Positions 2,807 to 56,520 of a stretch of DNA of 64,000 nucleotides are shown here, piece by piece. Position numbers and translations under genes: made by a program. The notes beneath the pieces are model-generated. The model worked only from the letters and a program-made list of their open reading frames with translations. It searched no databases and was not told the DNA's origin. Numbering within the stretch: the stretch's first letter is position 1; each line of letters starts with the position of its first letter. Source of the stretch: a virus (Duplodnaviria; Heunggongvirae; Uroviricota; Caudoviricetes); IMG/VR virus record IMGVR_UViG_2718218172_000010; one strand, written 5' to 3'.

Positions 2807-2959
2807 TTAGCAAGTATTTCTGGCAAGCCAGCGACGTGCGCCCGTTTCAGTTTTGAATGTCTTGCTTTTGGTATAAGTCATGGCGGTGAACGTTCCATCC
2901 TGGTTGGGGAACACGCCACACACTAGGGATTCGTTGTTGCCGAGGTCGATTTTTTGCAT
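2807..2959 (-). CDS. YdfA-like small protein (DUF1391-like, 50 aa)
   Basis: Internal ATG at 2959; MQKIDLGNNESLVCGVFPNQDGTFTAMTYTK... Confidence 0.45.
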   Translation of the reverse strand: MQKIDLGNNESLVCGVFPNQDGTFTAMTYTKSKTFKTETGARRWLARNTC

Positions 2960-3340
2960 TTTGGAAACCCTCACATCTTGTTGTTGCGGATAGAGGCTTC
3001 TGCCTGCCAGAGATCCCAGTCGTTGCTGCGTAGAGCCTGTACAGCCTGGCTGTAAGTGATGTCGTAACAATCCATCAAATACTGAACTACTTCGTAATGC
3101 ACCATTTTATCTCTCCCTTTAACGCCGGGTGGCGGAACTAAAACCTACAGCGCCGTGCTGCTTCTGCAATAATATTAGTTATATTCATATAAGTGATCAA
3201 CACAAATATGCATTTTATTGATAAAAATGTACTATCGTAATGAAATTTTTAGTGTTTTTTTTGATAAAAAAGAAAGGTGAGGGTGCAGAGGGGACAAAAA
3301 AACCGCCAAAAATGGCGGTTTAGTTACGAGGTTACGGGAG

Positions 3341-3805
3341 CTATTTCTTCATGCGTTTCTGAGCTGCCAGCATCTTTTCAAACGCTTCTTTGTAGAGTTC
3401 ATTCTGACCTTTAAGCCTTTCGATTAGTTTTGCTTTTTCTGATTCGGGTAGGATTTCAAAAAGATCCAGTAAATCAGCTTGTTGCTTGTTAACCATCCGC
3501 CAACCTTCGCCTTCGAAACTTTCGTCATAAGTTCCTGAGGAACGGACGTAATTCATCAGATCAGCTAAATCAGGCCTCAACTCTTCAGGCTTAACTCTTA
3601 GTAATACAGCGAATTTTAATGCTGCATCAGTGTTTAGTGGAGCCTTTCCGTTGAGATAGTGGCTAACTGTGGATTGAGTCTCAAAGCCCATTAGCTCAGC
3701 AGCAAGCTCCTGAGTCAGTTTGAGCTCTCTTTTTTTGGCATCCCAGACTGCGCGCAGACGCTGCGTAGCTTCTGGCGATGCGATTTCTTCGCGTTTTCTT
3801 CTCAT
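3341..3805 (-). CDS. prophage repressor, HTH XRE-type (RacR/cI-like)
   Basis: 154 aa with helix-turn-helix LTQELAAELMGFETQSTVSHYLNGK; divergent from Cro-like gene. Confidence 0.7.
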   Translation of the reverse strand: MRRKREEIASPEATQRLRAVWDAKKRELKLTQELAAELMGFETQSTVSHYLNGKAPLNTDAALKFAVLLRVKPEELRPDLADLMNYVRSSGTYDESFEGEGWRMVNKQQADLLDLFEILPESEKAKLIERLKGQNELYKEAFEKMLAAQKRMKK

Positions 3806-3909
3806 ACCACCATCTTATGAACACAACTCATAATCTCAAACTGATATAGGTATTGATCATTTAAATTAATATAGTTAATATTTTGACAGGCATTACTAAG
3901 GTGACCCTT
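3806..3909. promoter_or_regulatory. immunity-region divergent promoter/operator region
   Basis: 104-bp AT-rich gap between divergent repressor and Cro-like genes; TTGACA at about 3885. Confidence 0.4.
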
Positions 3910-4185
3910 ATGACATTAGATGAATATTTGAAAAAAAATCGTGTACGACAGTCTTGTTTGGCTGCACTCGCTGGTTGTTCGCAATCAATGATTAGCCTCG
4001 TAGCTACTGGCCGTAGTCAGTTAAGCCCCGAAAAGGTATTGCGTATCGCGGAGGCTACGAATTTCGAGGTTACACCTCATGAACTTCGGCCTGATATCTA
4101 CCCGAATCCGACCGATGGTTTACCTGTTGGATGTAAAGCTAACACACAAAATGCACAGGAGTTGATTCATGAAAATCAGGCATGA
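3910..4185 (+). CDS. Cro/YdaS-like HTH protein
   Basis: ATG with AAGGTGA SD; HTH RQSCLAALAGCSQSMISLVATGR. Confidence 0.6.
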   Translation: MTLDEYLKKNRVRQSCLAALAGCSQSMISLVATGRSQLSPEKVLRIAEATNFEVTPHELRPDIYPNPTDGLPVGCKANTQNAQELIHENQA

Positions 4186-4591
4186 GCACATTGAATCAGT
4201 GCTGTTAGCCCTGGCCGCTGAAAAAGGGCAGGCATGGGTAGCCAATGCAATTACTGAAGAATATCTGCGCCAGGGGGACGGCGAATTGCCCTTGGTACCA
4301 GGCAGGGACTGGAACAATCAGCAGAATATCTATCATCGTTGGTTAAAAGGTGAAACGGAAGCGCAAAGGGAAAAAATTCAGAAGCTGATCCCAGCAATTC
4401 TGGCAATCCTTCCGCGGGAGCTGCGTCACCGACTCTGCATCTTCGATACCCTGGAACGCCGTGCATTACTGGCGGCGCAGGAAGCGTTGAGTACGGCAAT
4501 TGATGCGCATGATGACGCAGTCCAGGCCGTTTACCGTAAAGCGCATTTCGGCGGTGGTGGAGCGTCCGACGATTCTGTTGTAGTGCATTGA
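4169..4591 (+). CDS. YdaT-like regulatory protein (cII position)
   Basis: 140 aa, overlaps stop of Cro-like gene; MKIRHEHIESVLLALAAEKGQAW... Confidence 0.55.
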   Translation: MKIRHEHIESVLLALAAEKGQAWVANAITEEYLRQGDGELPLVPGRDWNNQQNIYHRWLKGETEAQREKIQKLIPAILAILPRELRHRLCIFDTLERRALLAAQEALSTAIDAHDDAVQAVYRKAHFGGGGASDDSVVVH

Positions 4592-8250: not shown

Positions 8251-8606
8251 GCGAGATTAATTATCAGGAAGGACATGAAACGGCAGGGCAGGCAAAACCA
8301 GTTGCATGGCGATATCGCTACGTGAAAAAAGGCGTTACGGACTCTCAGGGGGAGCCGTGGGTTGGTGACTGGAAATATGTACCGACAAAAGAGGATTGCA
8401 ACGACAGGCCGAGCTATGAAATTCAGGCGTTATTCACTGCCCCGCCTGTGCCACTGACACCAGAAGGATTGATTAAAGCAGTGCGCTTCTATGAACAGGT
8501 AAAGTGTGAGAATCCGCCAGCTGAAACCGGAGCATGGAAGGACGCTATTGACTGGGTACTCAAGGAGGCCTGCCTGGTTGTAAACACTGGCATCAAAGGA
8601 GGCTGA
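8247..8606 (+). CDS. hypothetical phage protein
   Basis: 119 aa; translationally coupled to upstream small ORF. Confidence 0.45.
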   Translation: MSEINYQEGHETAGQAKPVAWRYRYVKKGVTDSQGEPWVGDWKYVPTKEDCNDRPSYEIQALFTAPPVPLTPEGLIKAVRFYEQVKCENPPAETGAWKDAIDWVLKEACLVVNTGIKGG

Positions 8607-8822
8607 ATGGGTATTGCTGCAAGTTACACCATGCATCTCTACTGTGATTGTCGCCAGTGTACGGATGGCAAATATCAGTCGCCAGACTTTGGTGAGTATA
8701 TCGGTACGTCATGGGCTGGCTGTGCAAAAGAGGCACGTAAAGATGGGTGGCGAATAAGCGCCGACAAAACGCGTGCTTTTGCGCCAGGGCATAAAATTTT
8801 GAGGAGCAACAAAGGAGAGTGA
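8607..8822 (+). CDS. hypothetical Cys-rich small protein
   Basis: AAGGAGG SD; 71 aa. Confidence 0.4.
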   Translation: MGIAASYTMHLYCDCRQCTDGKYQSPDFGEYIGTSWAGCAKEARKDGWRISADKTRAFAPGHKILRSNKGE

Positions 8823-8823
8823 T

Positions 8824-9042
8824 ATGCCTACATTATTCAGAAAAGAATATCCGCGAAAAAGTAGAGCGACAGAATTTTTGTTTCTCATTCTGTTTATCGT
8901 GTTGATGATACCGATATCCCCGCTATTACTGGCCTGGATAATCGGAAAAGTAATTGAGCCAGTTATTGAATTGTATAACGACGTGGTATGGGCCTCGTTC
9001 AACACACTGCACAATAAAATTAATCCGTATAAGGAAAACTGA
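8824..9042 (+). CDS. small membrane protein
   Basis: AAGGAG SD; hydrophobic core FLFLILFIVLMIPISPLLLAWIIG. Confidence 0.4.
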   Translation: MPTLFRKEYPRKSRATEFLFLILFIVLMIPISPLLLAWIIGKVIEPVIELYNDVVWASFNTLHNKINPYKEN

Positions 9043-9043
9043 A

Positions 9044-9589
9044 ATGACTTTTACCGAAAAAGAAATGATTAAAGAAATCAAAGAGCGCATAGGCAGCCTG
9101 GACGTGCGAGACAATATTGAGCGCCGGGCTTATGAAATTGCTCTGGCATCGCTGGAAGCAGAGCCGGTGCTTTATATGAATCGATTTACCGGAAAGACAT
9201 TCTCACTGGAAGGGCAACCAGGAGCAGACAAGGAACCGGAAATATACGTGCCGCTATACGCTGCTCCGCCAGCGCCGGTAGTGCCGGAATTTGAAACATG
9301 GTTTAACAGCCAGGAGTCAGGGAGGAGTATATGCAGCACACAGATTCGTCGCTCCCTTCAGGAAATCTCATGGAACGCCTGCTGCGCCGCCATGCTTCAG
9401 GGGAAAGGCGATGGTATCCTCACCAATGAGGATACCAAAGGGGACGTTCAGGTACGGGAATTAACAATGCTGATTAAACAACTGGCTAGCCAATTGAGGA
9501 AAGTGAAGCCGAACTGCAAATTACCGGATAAGGCGATGAGTTATCTGGAGCGGAACGGACTGATAAGCGTGGAGGATATTTTACGATGA
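9044..9589 (+). CDS. hypothetical phage protein
   Basis: ATG at 9044 after AAGGA; 181 aa. Confidence 0.5.
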   Translation: MTFTEKEMIKEIKERIGSLDVRDNIERRAYEIALASLEAEPVLYMNRFTGKTFSLEGQPGADKEPEIYVPLYAAPPAPVVPEFETWFNSQESGRSICSTQIRRSLQEISWNACCAAMLQGKGDGILTNEDTKGDVQVRELTMLIKQLASQLRKVKPNCKLPDKAMSYLERNGLISVEDILR

Positions 9590-9669
9590 CCTGGCCTGAA
9601 GCATTCACAACGGTAGGAATTGCGATGGCGGTGGCGCTGGTGGTGTATTCGATTTGCCGATGGGGATAA
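9586..9669 (+). CDS. 27-aa hydrophobic peptide
   Basis: ATG overlapping upstream stop, GGAGGA SD; MTWPEAFTTVGIAMAVALVVYSICRWG. Confidence 0.3.
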   Translation: MTWPEAFTTVGIAMAVALVVYSICRWG

Positions 9670-9880
9670 AAACGGTTTGCGGGAAAAGGAGAGTTAAGTA
9701 GAATTGCTGCGGGTGCTTGAGGCTATCTGCCTCAGGCATGAACACCAAAAGGCAGATAGAGAAAAGCCCCAGTTAACATTACGCGTCCTGCAAGACGCTT
9801 AACATTAATCTGAGGCCCAATCTATGTCTCACAAATGTAGGTTAGCCTCTTACGTGCCGAAAGGCAAGGAGAAGCAGGCT

Positions 9881-10036
9881 ATGAAGCAGCAAAAGGCGAT
9901 GTTAATCGCCCTGATCGTCATCTGTTTAACCGTCATAGTGACGGCACTGGTAACGAGGAAAGACCTCTGCGAGGTACGAATCCGAACCGGCCAGACGGAG
10001 GTCGCTGTCTTCACAGCTTACGAACCTGAGGAGTAA
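9881..10036 (+). CDS. hokD: Hok-family type I toxin (HokD/RelF-like, 51 aa), with overlapping mok-like frame from 9824
   Basis: MKQQKAMLIALIVICLTVIVTALVTRKDLCEVRIRTGQTEVAVFTAYEPEE; upstream fold-back elements resemble the plasmid hok locus at 61123-61422. Confidence 0.75.
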   Translation: MKQQKAMLIALIVICLTVIVTALVTRKDLCEVRIRTGQTEVAVFTAYEPEE

Positions 10037-38006: not shown

Positions 38007-39089
38007 TTCTTGGATTTGGCAATAACGTTGTTTCAGCACTGGCTGGCGATATCACGACGATTCAGACTGATATTCCGGTGATGCCGGGCACGGGAGCTAA
38101 ATTTGCAAAATTGCTTTCTGCCGATTTTGAAAATAAATCGAACGGGCAACGCGTCTATGCAAAAATTACGCTTACCGATAATAAAGAGTCTGCATTTGAG
38201 ATTTGTCACCTGGTATCGGTAAGCGGTGATGTGTTGAAAGTCATTCGTGGGCAGGAAGGAACAACCGCGAAAGGTTGGTCCCTTAATGACGTTGTGGCTA
38301 ACTTTGCCACGCGTGGTTCGGAAAACCATTTCGTACAGATAGCGCAGCTTCAGAGTGGTCATTATATTGCGGGAGTTGCTGGCGGCACTGCAAACGCGCT
38401 GACTCTGGAGCTTCCCGCGACGTTTTTTGTTAATGGAGGTACAGACTGGACGCTACGAACCCCGATTATCGTTTTCCCCGTTCAGAACAATACCAATGCC
38501 GCGACACTTCAATTAACACTGGGCGGAAAGGTTCTTGGTACGTTCCCGCTTTATAAGGGGAACAAGTCCGAGCTGGTAGCGAACGATATCATTAAAGGCA
38601 TTCCCTTAATTTGTCTTCTTGATAGCGAGAAAAGCTATTTCAGCGTGATAAACCCTGGCAATATCTATTCAGATTTTGATCTGCGATATGTAAAAAAATC
38701 TGGTGATTTGATGACCGGAGAACTAAAAATCCGTGGTGTTAATGCACTGAGGATTTTCAACGAAGCTTTTGGCCTGATTTTTCGTCGTTCGGAAGAGTGC
38801 CTGCACTTTATTCCAACACAGGAAAACCAGGGTGAAAATGGCAATATTGGTCCACTTCGACCGTTCACTATTAATCTGCGGACGGGTGAAATATCCATGT
38901 CGCATAAAGTGTCTGTTGGCGGCGGTTCTCAGGTCAATGGTGCGCTGGGTATCGGTGTTCAGAACGCGCTGGGCGGTAACTCAATTGCTTTCGGGGATAA
39001 CGATACCGGCCTGAAACAGAATGGTGACGGCCTGCTGGATGTTTATGCCAATGGTCAGCACGTATTCCGTTTTCAGAATGGCGCGTTAC
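38003..39089 (+). CDS. tail fibre protein, 3' end lost in gap
   Basis: ORF open into the N-run at 39090; Gly-rich repeats. Confidence 0.5.
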
Positions 39090-39189
39090 NNNNNNNNNNN
39101 NNNNNNNNNNNNNNNNNNNNNNNNNNNNNNNNNNNNNNNNNNNNNNNNNNNNNNNNNNNNNNNNNNNNNNNNNNNNNNNNNNNNNNNNN
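39090..39189. other. assembly gap (100 N)
   Basis: Exactly 100 consecutive N. Confidence 0.95.
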
Positions 39190-39476
39190 ATTATCAGGCG
39201 CAACTGAAGCGGCATAATCTGCGTGGAAGTATGAGCGCAAAAGGTTGCTGCTACGATAATGCCTGCGTGGAAAGCTTCTTTCATTCGCTGAAAGTGGAAT
39301 GTATCCATGGAGAACACTTTATCAGCCGGGAAATAATGCGGGCAACGGTGTTTAATTATATCGAATGTGATTACAATCGGTGGCGGCGGCACAGTTGGTG
39401 TGGCGGCCTCAGTCCGGAACAATTTGAAAACAAGAACCTCGCTTAGGCCTGTGTCCATATTACGTGGGTAGGATCA
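39190..39476 (+). mobile_element. IS3-family transposase 3' end and right inverted repeat (fragment)
   Basis: Translation ...[21 protein letters not shown]...[22 protein letters not shown] to stop at 39446; terminal GTGGGTAGGATCA ending at 39476. Confidence 0.65.
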
Positions 39477-45431: not shown

Positions 45432-45545
45432 CGGATTCAGGTTCAGGATGAATGATCTCCGTTGACTTCAGTTCACATCATTAATCAATGCGGTAAGTTT
45501 TTACCGACGGAGTGTTTCCAGGAGCGGAGGCTCAGGCCTTAAGCT

Positions 45546-46112
45546 TCAGAAGTGAGGCTTACGAGGACGCCCTGCAGCAGGACGTTCAGGAACTTCATTG
45601 CAGCCGTAGGCACACAGCCCGTCTTTTTGCTCTTCTTTCGCCAGATAATGCAGGGCACCGCGAATATTATCGATGCTTTCAGGATCATTGTGGCGCACAG
45701 GAATGTTGATGTTGTATGTATAATGCGGCTGATATGTACAGCGGTGTGCCGAACCGCTGTTATGCGTAATAGACCGCCAGCATTCCGTAATCCGCTCCGC
45801 AAAGGGATATATTTTTTTAACCCTCTGACGATCGATCCAGAAAACCGCATGCGCATGAAAACCATGATCAACCGTCCATTCAATCACCCAGAAGAAGCCA
45901 ACGATATTTTCAAATTGTTCCACCTGCTCCAGCAGCATACGCAACTGCAATTCAAGCCAGCGATGATCAGGTTGTAAGAAATCAGGCGTATCTTTCCTGT
46001 AGAAGAAATCCATGCGTAAGGCCCGCAGGCAGGAATAGCGTGCCATCATTTGATTGATGTGATTGTCAAGTAAAGCGGTAAAAAACCAGTTTGGTGTGTA
46101 AGATTTAGGCAT
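45546..46112 (-). CDS. YfjJ/YagK-family HUH-like protein
   Basis: AGGAG SD; HAHAVFWI motif; 188 aa. Confidence 0.5.
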   Translation of the reverse strand: MPKSYTPNWFFTALLDNHINQMMARYSCLRALRMDFFYRKDTPDFLQPDHRWLELQLRMLLEQVEQFENIVGFFWVIEWTVDHGFHAHAVFWIDRQRVKKIYPFAERITECWRSITHNSGSAHRCTYQPHYTYNINIPVRHNDPESIDNIRGALHYLAKEEQKDGLCAYGCNEVPERPAAGRPRKPHF

Positions 46113-47650
46113 GTTGATGACTCCTGAAAGTTAATGATGTTTTAAGCTCTGTGAGCGAATTAATGCTTTCGCTCATAATCAGATCTAAAACGGTAATAAC
46201 TTACAGATGGTATTTATCAGGCATGCTGTAGCAGAATGAATACGACGGGTTATTAACGATACGCAGCATTATGCAGAAAGAAATGGATTATCTGATGGTA
46301 TTAGCTAAAGAGATGAGATAAACGAGGAGTAAAGAAAATACAGACTCAATAAAACATCACGAAATACTGCAAAATACGCGATAAAACACCACGTCCAGAA
46401 GGTTAAGAAACATATTGCGACCAATCAATCATAAACTACAAACTTGCTCTCAGTGGTTGTAAAAACTGTGTACAAGGCCAATGCAATAAACTTATATGCG
46501 CTCATTCAATCTGTTCTTAAGGACATGAACATTCACGGCTCACGATAGCAGAATAAAAAATACCACTGACATGATTTTCATCCTGCATCTTAGATAATAC
46601 AACCCAGAACAAACATAATCAGGAATCTCTCCTGTCAATTCCATTGTTTATCCAGCTCTGTTAATCGTTACAGAATCATGGATACCTTATCAAAAAGTAA
46701 ACATTCGGTTAATCAGTAATGACAAAAGAATTGATGTTCATCAGAATAGTTAAAACACTTCAGATAAACAACCATTGTTAAGAAAATACAGCTCATGATG
46801 GATAAGATTAAAATTAATTGCTGTTTCAGTGAAAATGAGAACAGATGAATATCATCAGTAGAATGGTAGAGAATAACTTACCTGAACATCATATGAGTTA
46901 CAGTAAATATGATTGAGGGATGGAATGAATACGATAACAAGAGTAATACTAATGGAATGTGTAACGATAGAGTGAATATAATCGTAAAGATAGAGAGTGA
47001 GTAAAGACAGGAAGTAAATAACAATAGAGATTGTATGAAAAAGGGAGTGAGTATAATAATAGTAATAAACCTAAATTAAAATTATCCATGTTTAATGAAT
47101 GGAAATGAGAAATCCGCCGTTCTGAACATATTCCGGACAGTTCCATTCCCTTACAAAAAAATATCAAATTAATTTTCTTCAACCCTCTATTAAAACATGA
47201 ATCGCATCCCTTATCAGTAACAGACGAATAATAATTTGTTATTCAGAAAGAGAGCGACATCGTCATATACCCCAGCACTCATCACGGCAAGAATCAAACA
47301 AACTTATATATATAAACTCACACAATATGGTTAATGATTAGCTTTAATCCATGTTTAAAACAATCTTTCGATTACCTTTCGTTATATCTGAAACGAAAAC
47401 CACTCTTCCACCAGTGCGCACATCCCAGCATTCAATCAGCTCTGACAGCAGGTCATTATGAAAACAAAACCAAATCACAGATGTAGTGTATGTGCTGCTA
47501 CTGTTGCTACCATAGCGATTTTTTCAGAGAAATTTTCATTCACACCCAATAATTGGTGAATATTTGCACATGTGCAGGATATGCAACACACCTTATCATC
47601 AACCTTCATTCGAAGGATTATGATTTTCGTTTTCTACTCGCAAAATTGTT

Positions 47651-49255
47651 TTAAAATAAGGTGTAAGCTGAGGAATCAGGTGTAAATGACTGAATTAATG
47701 CCGGTGGAATAACAACGGAATATGTTTTCGCATTATGGTTATACTGGGGTGGAACAATATCAAACGGTTCGTAAGACATTGCGCCGAAAGGAAGGATGTA
47801 ACCATTATTATCAAGAGCAGAAACATAAAGTGCCTGATGCGATCGCATCTTGATGATACGGAAATAATTCTGAGCGATTAACTGATTGAGTACAGGTGTA
47901 AGTTTTTCTGCTCTTCTCAGACGATTGGGACCATATCTTTCAATGTCTGTTTTCCTGATAGCACGCCAATTATTCTGCCTTATTCGGGTCATAATCCATG
48001 CATACAGTTCACAGGCATCCTGTTCAAACTGGCATCGTGCAGACATGGGATAAAATATTGTGCTCGCCTCCTCCAGATACCAGTCCATGAGATGCATAGC
48101 TTTAAAAAGCGCAATTGATTCAATTTCCTCAGCATCTTTATAGCAATAGCAGGTGAATATTCCAGCTATCCTCAGTATATTAGAACCTGCTTTCAGAACA
48201 ATATCTCTGATGTGTTCCCACTCCCCTCCTGCAAGCGCTTTTCTTTCAATCTTAATCTGGTTTTCCTGCCACTCCCCCAACGCTTTCTTTGCAAGTTTTA
48301 ATGTTTTCCTTTCGGTGCTCATACCGGGGGAATTAATGTTATGGCTTAACAGAAATCCGTTAATCTTTTTATGAAACTTCTCCAGGGTTGGTTTTGTTCT
48401 GAACTCGCCTCTCGTATAATCCCGTACCCGGGAAGGACTTCCGGTCTGACTGAACAGAAACCGGGAAAGAAATCCGCTTCCCCACGCCAGTACGTCATTT
48501 TTATTTATATAATTCGTAAAGACATCCGGCTGGGACATTAACGAAAATGTCAGACGTGGCGTGATATGGTATTTCTCGTCAGCCCGTCCAAAATCAAACG
48601 GTTGTCCACTCCATGCTTTATTCAACAGGCCCGGATAATTTTTCAGATAGCTTCTGAAAAAAGTGACCGCCTCGTCAGAAATAACCCCTGCCTCAGGATG
48701 TTCATTGAGCCCTTCCACAAGCGCTTTAAGCGAAACATCTTCATAGATAAAATTCGGTCGAACCGGACGTGTCGGTTTATTTCTTTCGTGATTACGCAGC
48801 GCCTCTTCTTCCTGTTCCCCCGGATACCCCCGGTTAACAGTCTTTCTTAAATTGGCAGCAAGCGCTTTCTGCCGGGTATTCCAGATCTGTAGTTCAGTCT
48901 TATAATCTTTGTTTCTCTCTTCGTATTGTTGAATGAGTCGATCGGCAAATTCGTAACAGGGGTTCATCACCAGTCTGTTTATCGTTGTTTTTCCCGCGCC
49001 TGGCTCTGCGATTGCCAACAGATAAAGTGAGCAGGGTTCCGGCATGTTGGTGTGAGGATGAACAACGTCAACCAGTGACTGACAGGAGAGTGAGAGCGTT
49101 GCCAGTACAGTATTAAAAATGAGCTCCAGCGGAAGTTGGGTACTTTCATATAAGTCGTCAATGAGATATGCAAGCTCACTAGGAAATAATCTGTAGGTTA
49201 AATCAGCTGGGAAGTGGTGGGATGTCTGCAAGGATTGCATATAAGCGGAATTCAT
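47651..49255 (-). CDS. P-loop NTPase, DUF3987/YfjI-like
   Basis: 534 aa; Walker A AEPGAGKTT. Confidence 0.5.
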   Translation of the reverse strand: MNSAYMQSLQTSHHFPADLTYRLFPSELAYLIDDLYESTQLPLELIFNTVLATLSLSCQSLVDVVHPHTNMPEPCSLYLLAIAEPGAGKTTINRLVMNPCYEFADRLIQQYEERNKDYKTELQIWNTRQKALAANLRKTVNRGYPGEQEEEALRNHERNKPTRPVRPNFIYEDVSLKALVEGLNEHPEAGVISDEAVTFFRSYLKNYPGLLNKAWSGQPFDFGRADEKYHITPRLTFSLMSQPDVFTNYINKNDVLAWGSGFLSRFLFSQTGSPSRVRDYTRGEFRTKPTLEKFHKKINGFLLSHNINSPGMSTERKTLKLAKKALGEWQENQIKIERKALAGGEWEHIRDIVLKAGSNILRIAGIFTCYCYKDAEEIESIALFKAMHLMDWYLEEASTIFYPMSARCQFEQDACELYAWIMTRIRQNNWRAIRKTDIERYGPNRLRRAEKLTPVLNQLIAQNYFRIIKMRSHQALYVSALDNNGYILPFGAMSYEPFDIVPPQYNHNAKTYSVVIPPALIQSFTPDSSAYTLF

Positions 49256-49581
49256 TGTAACGGACCTCCTTCACATACTGTAATCAGCGCAAAACTTATT
49301 GTTCAGTTCAGGAACATACCGGCATGGTGAGTATGTTCGCTGACGTCGATAATAAAATGGCTTATCTCCATTCACCAGTCCCGGCGCATTTATGATGCTG
49401 ACAAAAGTAAAACAACATGTGTGCATCCAGAAGTCTGGCATCGCAGCGACAAATGATGGATGCATGAAAACCAGGAAACATTGCATGACTTCAGGACGAC
49501 TTTTTCAGAAAACGAGCTAAGGGCGTCAACCACGCCCTTACTGTGACATATACTCTGGCACCGGATGCCGTTTTACAGGGT

Positions 49582-50313
49582 TCACCTGCCATCCAGTAGA
49601 CGCCCCGCTCCACGGCTGCAACCATAATTACGTTGACCAGAACCGTCATGCTGCTTCGTCTCATACTTCACGAGATAACGGGCTCTCTCCATGGCTTTCT
49701 GCATCGCTTCCACATCACCACGCTTGATCCAGAGAACAGCGGCTTCACCCGGCTTTTTGTCTGAAGCCTTCCTGGTTTCAGAACATCCACCCGACAAAGG
49801 CGTATCATCGGAAGAAGGGCGAGCATCAGATGATGCCGGTTTACGGAAAGGCGTCCGCCTGGAAAAATGAACCAGTCCATTACCCTGCCAGGGCTCAAGA
49901 TGCAGAGCGCTACACCATGCCAGTTGGATCAGCGTCGCCAGCGAAGAAGGAACGGTGAAATCCCCTGGCGAGCACCAGGTATCTTTGTTGAGCAGTAATA
50001 TCACGTGATAATGTTTCCTGCCTTTTTCCTTGCCAAACTCCCGACACCAGAAATAATGCAGGGTGGTTGCACGCACACGCTTGTTGGTACGTCGTTTTTT
50101 CCGCTGGTAAGCCTGAATTTTGGCTTTCAGGGATTCGAAAAAACGAGAAATCACCGCTGAATCCGGATCGGGATCCATGATGGTGACAGGCATATGCTCA
50201 GGGAAACGTAAATCCACCCGGATTAACGAGACGGCACGGTGTTGCACCAGGGCACTGTTGAGAATACTTTCAAAACGGGATAACCAGTAATCATTGTGTA
50301 TTGGTTGATTCAT
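49582..50313 (-). CDS. YfjJ/YagK-family HUH-like protein
   Basis: HYHVILLL motif; ATG with GGAGA SD. Confidence 0.5.
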   Translation of the reverse strand: MNQPIHNDYWLSRFESILNSALVQHRAVSLIRVDLRFPEHMPVTIMDPDPDSAVISRFFESLKAKIQAYQRKKRRTNKRVRATTLHYFWCREFGKEKGRKHYHVILLLNKDTWCSPGDFTVPSSLATLIQLAWCSALHLEPWQGNGLVHFSRRTPFRKPASSDARPSSDDTPLSGGCSETRKASDKKPGEAAVLWIKRGDVEAMQKAMERARYLVKYETKQHDGSGQRNYGCSRGAGRLLDGR

Positions 50314-50982
50314 GATGAGAGATCTCCGTTGATTTGGATTGACTTCACATCATTAATCGCCGCGGTAAAACTTTACGGCATCCCACCAATGAGCAACGCC
50401 AATAGCTCATGATTAAAACGGAATGAATCGTCCCGTAACGAAAAGATAATCCTGCACACGACAGCAAAACGTAAAACAACAGCATGAATGAGCTAAATGT
50501 CTAAAGAAAAACTGCCTTTTCACATTATTTTTCAGCGAGTAATCATACCAGCATCCCTAACATACGAAATCGCATCGTGATCGATCGCTGATTCGCCGAA
50601 CAACTGATCGAATACACCGGAATCTGCACTAACATCCTGATGGGTAACGGAAGACTAAAAAACCAGTGTTCTATTGATTGCACGGAATGCCTGTGCGCTG
50701 GCCTGACCAGTAAGCACAATTCTACGAGTAGTAAGATATCTACTCCAAAACCATGCGCAGTAGCCACCATATGTTGCCAGGGTGAAAAATAAGCTCAGAG
50801 CTATAGGGGAGTAATTCCCGTTAATGTCATCGCCGTACCTCAATCAGCTCACAAACTGGCTGAAACGTTAAGCTGAGGCCTTTATTCTTCAGATGTATTT
50901 TCCGGTTTACCTGTAAATTATCTTCTGATATTTATCACATTAGTAATTGTGCTGATTATCTACATACTTCAAGGTCTGAAAT

Positions 50983-55988: not shown

Positions 55989-56189
55989 ATGAATGCACGA
56001 AAAGCGGTACTGGCAGACAATCCGGAATTGATCCTGCGTGTGCTACAGCTGAGATTTGACGAGTCACTGTCGTACCCGCGCATTTCTGCGCAGACCGGTG
56101 TCAGCAAAACCGCCATTTTTTCTCTGGTGAGGCGATTTCACCAGGTATTCACTGACTGGCCTCTTTCCGGTGAATATTCCTGCGGGCAA
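55989..56189 (+). CDS. hypothetical protein, truncated by gap
   Basis: ATG with AAGGGA SD; ORF runs into N-run. Confidence 0.35.
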
Positions 56190-56289
56190 NNNNNNNNNNN
56201 NNNNNNNNNNNNNNNNNNNNNNNNNNNNNNNNNNNNNNNNNNNNNNNNNNNNNNNNNNNNNNNNNNNNNNNNNNNNNNNNNNNNNNNNN
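56190..56289. other. assembly gap (100 N)
   Basis: Exactly 100 consecutive N. Confidence 0.95.
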
Positions 56290-56520
56290 GTTCATGCTAC
56301 TGCTACTGTTCTTCTTTTTTCTGCTGCTCTGATTACTGTCTGTTTTGTTGTTCTCCTGCTTATGCCTTTTCCGGGCGTCCCCCTGGCGGGGCGGGCTGTC
56401 GTGAACGGAGCCAGCGGAGCTGTCTCCGCCCTGGCGGGCTTCCATCCCTGACGCGAAACCCCGGGCTTGCAGCGACCGTTCCGGTCGCGCCGCCTCTGTC
56501 GCGCCGTGGCCTGCGCTCCC
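56290..56520 (+). repeat. leading-region repeated element, copy 1 (5' end lost in gap)
   Basis: About 200 bp nearly identical to 61700-61915, including hairpin GCGACCG-TTC-CGGTCGC. Confidence 0.55.

Follow-up and report, generated by a model that had tools for sequence, protein, structure and literature searches.

A 1.5-kb AT-rich intergenic gap at the cargo junction of an Escherichia coli genomic island

The 64,000-nucleotide stretch of DNA studied here (IMG/VR virus record IMGVR_UViG_2718218172_000010, referred to below as the window) contains a 1.5-kb gap at 46113–47650 between two genes encoded on the minus strand. One is yfjI, for whose product Pfam confirmed the DUF3987 assignment (E 5e-74), and the other is gp2s, whose product had weak matches to REP_ORF2-G2P and YagK_YfjJ_C that were under the Pfam cut-offs. 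Along the minus strand the gene order is gp2L (a second Rep-like gene), yfjI, the gap, gp2s, a 190-amino-acid (aa) open reading frame (ORF) and an AlpA-family gene. A first-pass annotation, made from the letters of the window, had described the gap as a non-coding stretch between a DUF3987-like gene and a YfjJ-like gene. Both flanking genes were as it claimed, and its boundaries were exact, with 46113 directly past the gp2s start codon and 47650 directly before the yfjI stop codon. Our analyses showed that the gap consists of two unrelated intergenic units joined at a cargo junction, which the first-pass annotation had missed, and that it contains no recognizable pseudogene and does not form a large structured RNA. 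Four short elements within it are constrained or otherwise special: the leader of gp2s, a minisatellite, an invariant 22-mer and a possible small RNA (Table 1).

Two intergenic units and a cargo slot

The composite origin of the gap was evident from its distribution in megablast and blastn searches of 5426 complete E. coli genomes, 72,556 plasmids and 50,697 phages. The gap was present at least in part in 1572 of the 5426 E. coli genomes, and at full length in 331 of them. The common partial class comprised query positions 1 to ~985 (window 46113–47097) and was always found upstream of gp2s, whether yfjI was present or not. The remaining 553 bp (47098–47650) were found in 333 genomes, always at full length, and adjoined yfjI at every locus examined. 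As the left part follows gp2s without yfjI, and the right part occurs only with yfjI, the gap represents two evolutionary units that are joined at ~47097–47125. There was no match for the gap in the 50,697 phage genomes, leaving a phage origin unsupported, and the gap stretch was 100% identical to that of strain cq9 (NZ_CP031546); the window is E. coli DNA.

The right-hand flanks of the 22-mer, which lies at the edge of the left unit, formed 17 clusters (five of them single sequences), all of which diverged ~17–45 nt past the 22-mer. The cargo beyond this junction differed by strain, and included yfjI, a TIR-domain gene, an nSTAND NTPase (nSTAND1), an H-NS paralogue, H-NS-family genes or remnants, a sugar kinase, an acyltransferase and insertion sequence (IS) elements. 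The loci at which the slot was viewed, besides window 47098–49478, were L027 (4000–5700), L029, L005/L028, L024 and L025/L026. Homology with a strain that has a TIR gene in place of yfjI resumed at ~49479, just beyond the gp2L terminator, which indicated that yfjI and its 3′ flank form one cassette in a slot between the gp2L terminator and ~47097–47125. Based on these alignments, the interval from the 22-mer junction to the gp2L terminator looks like a hotspot for defense or accessory genes within the island backbone.

Comparison with strain CDF6 revealed blocks of different age. Identity was 97.7% over gp2s, 95.4% over gp2L and about 97–98% over the first 1400 nt of yfjI (40 differences), versus 77% over 46361–46900, 82% over 47098–47650 and about 81% over the last 200 nt of yfjI (47651–47850, minus strand; 38 differences). 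Such young flanks with an old middle are best read as recombinational mosaicism and not as a single history, and the divergent 3′ end of yfjI appears to be as old as the spacer and to form one allele block with it. In yfjI overall, 43 of 535 residues differed between alleles, versus 9 of 196 4-fold degenerate sites, and the comparisons suggest that its C-terminus has either recombined or is fast-evolving.

A 323-bp piece of the left unit (window 46753–47095), which contains the minisatellite and the 22-mer, was also found on several IncI/IncK/IncF conjugative plasmids (L020, H135–H142), beside ISEc8 and the siderophore-receptor gene ireA. This fragment (query 641–983) was considered as an independent element and rejected, as it appears to be an IS-truncated island remnant that travels with ireA.

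The ~59 kb around the gap are a genomic island inserted at tRNA-Phe (pheV), with its far end at yghD. Among the cargo genes of the island are those for a type I restriction system, a ProQ/FinO protein and a paralogue of H-NS, and the right-hand module is of the usual type (GTPase, DUF932, antirestriction, JAB/RadC and CbeA/CbtA, followed by yghD). Two phosphoethanolamine transferase genes were also observed in the cargo (8510–10006 and 13780–15441, minus strand), each adjoining a gene for an outer-membrane protein. In addition, the 68 bp directly upstream of gp2L (50309–50376) were 75% identical to 45442–45504, located ahead of the 190-aa ORF downstream of gp2s; this similarity hints that the gp2L and gp2s modules share a duplicated regulatory segment.

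Table 1. Features of the gap and its surroundings (positions are those of the window; a dot marks a feature without an assigned strand).
Feature	Position	Strand	Remarks
tRNA-Phe	2899–2974		Island start
Integrase	3172–4434
gp2s	45546–46112	-	188-aa inovirus-type Gp2/YagK-YfjJ Rep-like protein
Putative gp2s leader, promoter-proximal region of the gp2s-orf190-alpA operon	46113–46250	-	Constrained; 78% invariant columns (16 alleles)
Neutral spacer	46251–46900	.	49–65% invariant columns, same as 4-fold sites
Purine-rich, C-poor degenerate minisatellite	46901–47058	.	Units such as GAGTGARTAWAAT and GGAGAAGGT
Invariant 22-mer ATAGTAATAAACCTAAATTAAA	47059–47080	.	Edge of the gp2s backbone unit, directly after the minisatellite
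Semi-conserved tail and junction	47081–47125	.	ATTATCCATGTTTrATG...AAATrA; backbone/cargo homology ends here
Poorly conserved yfjI-cassette spacer	47098–47425	.	67–80% identity between allele classes, except block 47301–47360; 67–80% identity to window over 47098–47300
Better-conserved block	47301–47360		84–92% identity in most allele classes, 72% in L019; no ORF, promoter or terminator assignable
Segment with the promoter-like element and most of the candidate RNA	47426–47595		Mostly 82–92% identity to window; 72–80% in the decaying copy L019
Promoter-like element (putative)	47431–47459	+	TTCAAT-17 bp-CATTAT; TATTAT in one allele
Candidate small RNA, ~60 or ~170 nt	47466–47640	+	Convergent with yfjI; conserved body, internal hairpin, intrinsic terminator
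Internal hairpin and U6	47503–47524	+	Within the candidate small RNA
Terminator segment	47596–47640		60–71% identity to window
3′ intrinsic terminator	47599–47607 with 47612–47620 (stem), U-rich tail to 47638	+	U-tract on plus strand only
yfjI 3′ end	47651–47750		73–81% identity to window
yfjI (DUF3987)	47651–49255	-	534-aa protein
gp2L	49582–50313		Second Rep-like gene

Absence of genes and of a long structured RNA

The gap is AT-rich and non-coding, as the first-pass annotation had stated. Its GC content was 34.1% versus 47.4% for the window, which places it in the 2nd percentile of windows of its size (1538 bp), and the lowest value per kb was 32%, well under that of the genome. The longest stop-free stretch in six frames was 97 aa versus 80 ± 17 aa in shuffles of the same composition, so the absence of ORFs is what the base composition of the gap predicts. 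No annotated feature was present in RefSeq beneath the gap homologues among the matches listed for E. coli genomes, plasmids and phages. The further claim that the plus strand is heavily A/G-rich did not hold for the gap as a whole, which was A-rich (38% A) and 54.6% purine (rank 24% of windows). It did hold locally, at ~46750–47090, where purines reached 65–69% and C fell to 4.7%, the most C-depleted real 150-bp window of the 64 kb, and this local bias is due to the minisatellite. Two runs of N, of 100 bases each (39090–39189 and 56191–56290), gave false composition extremes in sliding windows, and the extreme purine/pyrimidine windows at 38997–39271 and 56081–56421 were set aside as artifacts of these runs.

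Overall, ~120 alleles of the gap were compared. Several ORFs of 16–33 aa were open in most or all of the alleles checked, and no ORF was intact across alleles besides trivial ones of 20–33 aa. Two of these small ORFs were rejected as genes: that at 46719 (20 aa) had many residue changes and no Shine-Dalgarno sequence, and that at 47458 (33 aa), which overlaps the candidate small RNA, had variable sites spread 10/7/7 by codon position and was interrupted in two alleles, by a premature stop (L019) or a frameshift (L089).

Relatives of gp2s were informative as to whether the gap might be a decayed gene, one of three readings raised in the first-pass annotation. The distant relatives (37–54% aa identity; Citrobacter, Enterobacter, Salmonella, Mixta and Klebsiella) had an ordinary ORF directly upstream, and a 60%-identical E. 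coli relative had alpA directly upstream. The exception was a Budvicia relative (L016, 37% aa identity) with a 1.3-kb upstream stretch without an ORF of at least 90 aa. The long gap was restricted to the gp2s clade of >88% identity, and the fact that distant relatives mostly lack it indicated that the spacer is lineage-specific baggage and not a requirement of the family. One or more ancient genes eroded past recognition would fit the presence in most distant relatives of a 197–207-aa ORF or alpA where this lineage has ~1 kb of nothing, and would also fit the neutral evolution of the bulk of the spacer, as expected of dead DNA. However, a scan of 32 stop-to-stop fragments (at least 28 aa, six frames) against Pfam, NCBIfam and PHROGs gave a best E of 0.046 over the 32 queries, which is chance level, and tblastn of the ORFs upstream of distant gp2s homologues left no trace in the gap. 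Indels between alleles were of 1, 2, 4, 13 and 14 nt, without the multiple-of-3 pattern of coding DNA, and none of the ~120 alleles had an intact ORF. The stop-free length expected at random, and a GC content of 31–36%, far under that of the neighboring genes, also argue against an eroded gene, and we consider it improbable.

The second reading, a long non-coding RNA, was unsupported for the bulk of the gap. Searches of 6.5 kb and of the candidate small RNA against Rfam 15 at a permissive E-value gave best scores of 17–25 bits, versus cut-offs of 45–80, to biologically irrelevant families. Single-sequence fold z-scores were near 0 over the bulk of the gap, and the alifold consensus energy of 35 diverse alleles over 46260–47100 was only 0 to -6 kcal/mol on both strands. 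A single long structured RNA across the gap would be in keeping with a region so large, found at full length in 331 genomes and never annotated. Against it stand not only the folding and Rfam results, but also the neutral substitution rate, the different distributions of the two halves (1572 versus 333 genomes) and the existence of a natural 330-bp deletion. Together, these data indicated that such an RNA is highly unlikely, and what was found instead was a short candidate of ~170 nt at 47466–47640.

Short constrained elements and the rival readings they raise

Conservation in the left unit was determined from alignments of 17 E. coli alleles of 47–96% mutual identity, and then of 67 unique alleles after metagenome contigs had been added. 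The same strains provided the neutral yardstick, as 45–68% of the 4-fold degenerate sites in their gp2s, alpA and 190-aa ORF were invariant. Next to gp2s, the blocks 46120–46137, 46193–46207 and 46209–46230 were invariant and remained unchanged in the 67 unique alleles. The Shine-Dalgarno sequence AGGAG at 46121–46125 is 8 nt ahead of the gp2s ATG, and 46152–46159 can pair with 46168–46175 to form a hairpin. In 18–19 of the 67 alleles, two G-C pairs of this hairpin become G.U when read as minus-strand RNA, where the plus strand would have A.C, and as the G.U pairing is kept only in a minus-strand RNA, the hairpin appears to be read from that strand. The fold z-score was approximately -3, and the consensus alifold energy was -19.2 kcal/mol on the minus strand. 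Based on these features, 46113–46250 would be the leader of an expressed gp2s mRNA, with a ribosome-binding site and a hairpin.

A 23-codon upstream ORF (MSESINSLTELKTSLTFRSHQHA, 46105–46176, minus strand) spans the leader hairpin and ends 4 nt past the gp2s start, where the two overlap in ATGCCTAA. It was open in 7 of 7 alleles checked, but the DNA there is near-invariant and the ORF lacks a Shine-Dalgarno sequence, so its conservation is uninformative; it could provide translational coupling to gp2s or be meaningless.

The ~650 bp in the middle of the left unit (46251–46900) drift at a neutral rate. The mean majority was 0.86–0.93, compared to 0.86–0.94 at 4-fold sites, and this segment had no ORF, repeats or conserved structure, with a consensus RNA energy of ~0. 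Moreover, ~330 bp (roughly 46240–46570) were deleted in the three shortest of the 67 unique alleles (~700 nt).

The minisatellite that follows was the most variable part of the unit, with only 16% invariant columns over 46901–47050. The 67 unique alleles contained 47 variants of 65–223 nt, in which the tandem copy number of GGAGAAGGT ranged from 1 to 7. Tandem Repeats Finder (TRF) returned 0 rows for the gap, and a repeat search found only short families of two or three copies. As judged from its sequence, the tract is a slippage-prone degenerate minisatellite. Its composition was kept in every variant (C 3–6%), and the minus-strand RNA would contain 24–36% C and 3–6% G and be near-unstructured (-4 to -9 kcal/mol per 120 nt).

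These properties raise the possibility that the tract, read on the minus strand, is a rut site, either as a Rho-dependent terminator or as an insulator, that blocks read-through from yfjI or other cargo into the gp2s-alpA operon. All 47 variants are C-rich and G-poor as minus-strand RNA, the tract has at least 80 nt with C over G and weak predicted folding, no other part of the minus strand from yfjI to gp2s has more C than G, and composition is kept while sequence varies, as a rut site tolerates. In addition, no canonical intrinsic terminator serves yfjI on the minus strand, as the hairpin at 47599–47620 has its U-tract on the opposite strand. Yet composition may persist trivially if variants arise by duplication and deletion of purine-rich units, and in many alleles the adjoining cargo is transcribed away from the tract or is an IS, so that protection from read-through is no general need. 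We regard a rut site as possible but rather unlikely; it is compatible with the explanation of the gap that we favor below and not exclusive of it.

Directly after the minisatellite, the 22-mer was 100% invariant in 16 E. coli alleles that had been picked without regard to it and were otherwise 66–96% mutually identical. It occurs once in the window, where 0 occurrences are expected. Metagenome contigs contained 102 exact matches, and all but 2 of those with a testable left flank adjoined the gp2s upstream region; the 22-mer was absent from the viral contigs searched.

The position of the 22-mer suggests a further reading, in which it is a nick or recognition site and the GAGTGA-type repeats are iteron-like sites for the HUH Rep-like proteins of the island, so that the region would be a rolling-circle origin of the excised island or a site of cargo capture. 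The gp2s translation has an HUH-like motif (HAHAVF) and a YxxK motif (YLAK), with weak similarity to REP_ORF2-G2P that is under the Pfam cut-offs. The 22-mer is invariant exactly where many cargo cassettes join, and GAGTGA occurs three times in the 160-nt tract versus ~0.15 expected from composition. The plus strand of the 22-mer has TAATAGT, which resembles the f1 gpII nick region CTTT/AATAGT, and its minus strand has TATTAC, as in the CRESS Rep nonanucleotides, but these resemblances are short and AT-rich. Also, there was no conserved hairpin around 47059–47097, with consensus folding of ~0 kcal/mol and a local AT hairpin that was not kept between classes. The repeats have no regular spacing, and regular direct repeats of 17–22 bp, as in an iteron-type theta origin, were not detected by TRF; their copy number is free, as slippage predicts. 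The site would be separated from the rep-like gene by 950 bp of DNA that drifts neutrally, and distant homologues mostly have no such region. Finally, a site-specific event does not fit junction breakpoints that are scattered across ~45 bp and include IS insertions. We find a Rep site of this kind doubtful, at about the level of an eroded gene. The more specific proposal, that the 22-mer and the iteron-like minisatellite together are a cis site of small HUH Rep-like proteins for Rep-driven cargo capture or island replication, seems slightly less probable still. If it were true, Rep nicking or replication would explain how unrelated cargo, including TIR and NTPase defense genes, came to be joined within the same ~45 bp, and a very common E. 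coli island family would have a site for cargo capture or replication.

Two other observations around the gap were made post hoc. The 64-kb window has 11 copies of TTCCACC, and four of these fall within 45918–47754, around the gap, at 45918 and 47406 (plus strand) and at 47703 and 47748 (minus strand). The heptamer resembles the P4 alpha-protein iteron TGTTCACC, a similarity from which no conclusion is drawn. The gap is also flanked by the arms of a 17-nt inverted repeat (88% complementary), one in gp2s (45908–45924) and the other in yfjI (47748–47764).

Conservation in the right unit was determined by comparison of the window with five other allele lineages. The best-conserved block of the cassette spacer was 47426–47465, with 78% of positions invariant across the 6 lineages, and it contains the promoter-like element. 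The body of the candidate RNA was 82–92% identical between allele classes, compared to 73–76% for the neighboring 3′ end of yfjI. Downstream of this block, the candidate small RNA ends in a stem-loop of which 88% of cells pair despite the low sequence identity of the segment, a level of pairing that 0 of 500 shuffles reached. Compensatory changes were present at two pairs of the terminator stem, one of which changes from C-G to U-A in 6 of 12 sequences and the other of which occurs as C-G, U-G and U-A. A terminator scan called the stem-loop in the window, with a stronger call in allele L004, in which the stem is 8 bp. A G+C-containing stem-loop with a U-tract is, in short, kept across alleles, and since the U-tract is on the plus strand, the terminator cannot serve the minus-strand gene yfjI. 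Together, these features indicated that the right unit probably encodes a small plus-strand RNA that ends at a canonical intrinsic terminator. The candidate had no Rfam family match. Esr41, the small RNA of OI-43, was considered as its identity, as related islands carry the module, and was rejected: Esr41 has another position and a GC-rich terminator, and no link between the two was established.

Interpretation and relation to known systems

The explanation that we favor, and consider reasonably probable, is that the gap is composite intergenic DNA at the cargo junction of a pheV-inserted E. coli island, mostly neutral and with a few short constrained elements. The left piece (46113 to ~47097) would be the long upstream region of the Rep-like gp2s-orf-alpA operon, in which only the ~140 bp next to gp2s appear function-like, as a leader, along with the constrained 22-bp motif at the far end. 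The right piece (47098–47650) would be the 3′ flank of the yfjI cassette, situated in the cargo slot that runs from the gp2L terminator to the 22-mer junction.

The third reading in the first-pass annotation, a silencer region bound by H-NS, was in agreement with the AT content of the gap, but not with the frequency of the high-affinity motif. Xenogeneic silencing of AT-rich DNA is established and makes H-NS coating here likely. Coating of the gap by H-NS is plausible on the basis of its composition, and since an H-NS paralogue is encoded by the island itself, silencing may extend to the Rep/AlpA module.

Several results weigh against parts of this interpretation. The gap had 3 H-NS high-affinity motifs (TCGATAAATT-like, up to 2 mismatches), compared to a window median of 2 per 1.5 kb and a maximum of 10 elsewhere. 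A sigma-70 consensus scan of the minus strand found no promoter for gp2s, and the promoter-like element of the right unit matches only 7 of 12 consensus positions and was under the scan threshold. For the candidate small RNA, the alifold z-scores versus column shuffles were equal on both strands (-3.4 and -3.7) and did not discriminate between them; its strand is indicated only by the U-tract and some wobble changes, and the terminator covariation rests on ~5 lineages. The metagenome alleles were retrieved via the exact 22-mer, so they add nothing to the evidence for its invariance. Conversely, 22 invariant columns and a purine tract of conserved composition exceed what pure spacer would predict, and their role is unexplained. 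Lastly, the lack of coding sequence, the composite origin, the rate pattern, the invariant and hypervariable elements and the terminator covariation are direct results, but every functional assignment made here, that of a rut site included, is drawn from sequence, as are expression of the leader, the promoter-like block and the small RNA and the coating of the gap by H-NS.

Overall, the gap is unremarkable intergenic DNA of an island, in which a few new elements that lack annotation were found. The finding that such a conspicuous gap, in the backbone of a widespread E. coli island, is for the most part neutral spacer, and not a hidden gene or a large RNA, matters little as it stands. Potentially useful by-products of the analysis are a conserved but unannotated leader of a Rep-like/AlpA operon, a candidate small RNA that is borne by the island and convergent with yfjI, and a sharp junction, composed of the 22-mer and the minisatellite, that marks a slot of exchanged defense-type genes. 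The junction is a possible landmark for cargo mining, and raises the question of what keeps the 22-mer fixed.

The gap shares several properties with AT-rich island regions targeted by H-NS: a GC content of 34% versus ~50% for the host, a length of >1 kb, location in a tRNA-inserted island upstream of mobility and regulatory genes, and an H-NS paralogue encoded in the same island. It differs from them in that the motif is not enriched and the sequence is mostly unconstrained, so a silencing platform would depend on composition only. The candidate small RNA is similar to small RNAs of islands and prophages, such as Esr41, in being a short intergenic unit in an island with a stem-loop and a poly-U end. 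Esr41 is an island small RNA of pathogenic E. coli, ~70 nt long and located between z1181 and z1182 of OI-43 (PMC8565820). The candidate differs in having no sequence-family match. The minus-strand tract is similar to rut sites in that it extends over at least 80 nt, is rich in C, poor in G and unstructured, and keeps its composition while its sequence is free; as a rut site and as a small RNA, the tract and the candidate are both predictions from sequence. The junction has in common with rolling-circle double-strand and iteron origins a short conserved motif and degenerate direct repeats beside HUH-type Rep-like genes. Unlike those origins, it lacks a hairpin at a nick site and a regular repeat spacing, the gene is 950 bp away, and the repeat number is free.

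Close parallels are also found in islands of the CP4-57/P4-like and AlpA-Gp2 types, which have the same gene set as that found here (AlpA, DUF3987 and two YagK/YfjJ Rep-like genes). The order in CP4-57 of K-12 (MG1655), alpA-yfjI-yfjJ with short gaps, differs from that of gp2L-[slot: yfjI]-1.5 kb-gp2s-orf-alpA in the window. In Pseudomonas, islands inserted at the tmRNA gene have an integrase at one end, an inovirus-Gp2-like gene and alpA (core) at the other, and variable defense-rich cargo, and one such island is transduced as a phage satellite (PMC12595487). A comparable non-coding region is not described for the Pseudomonas islands in that report (PMC12595487). The module described here belongs to the same broad kind of element as these Pseudomonas Gp2/AlpA islands.

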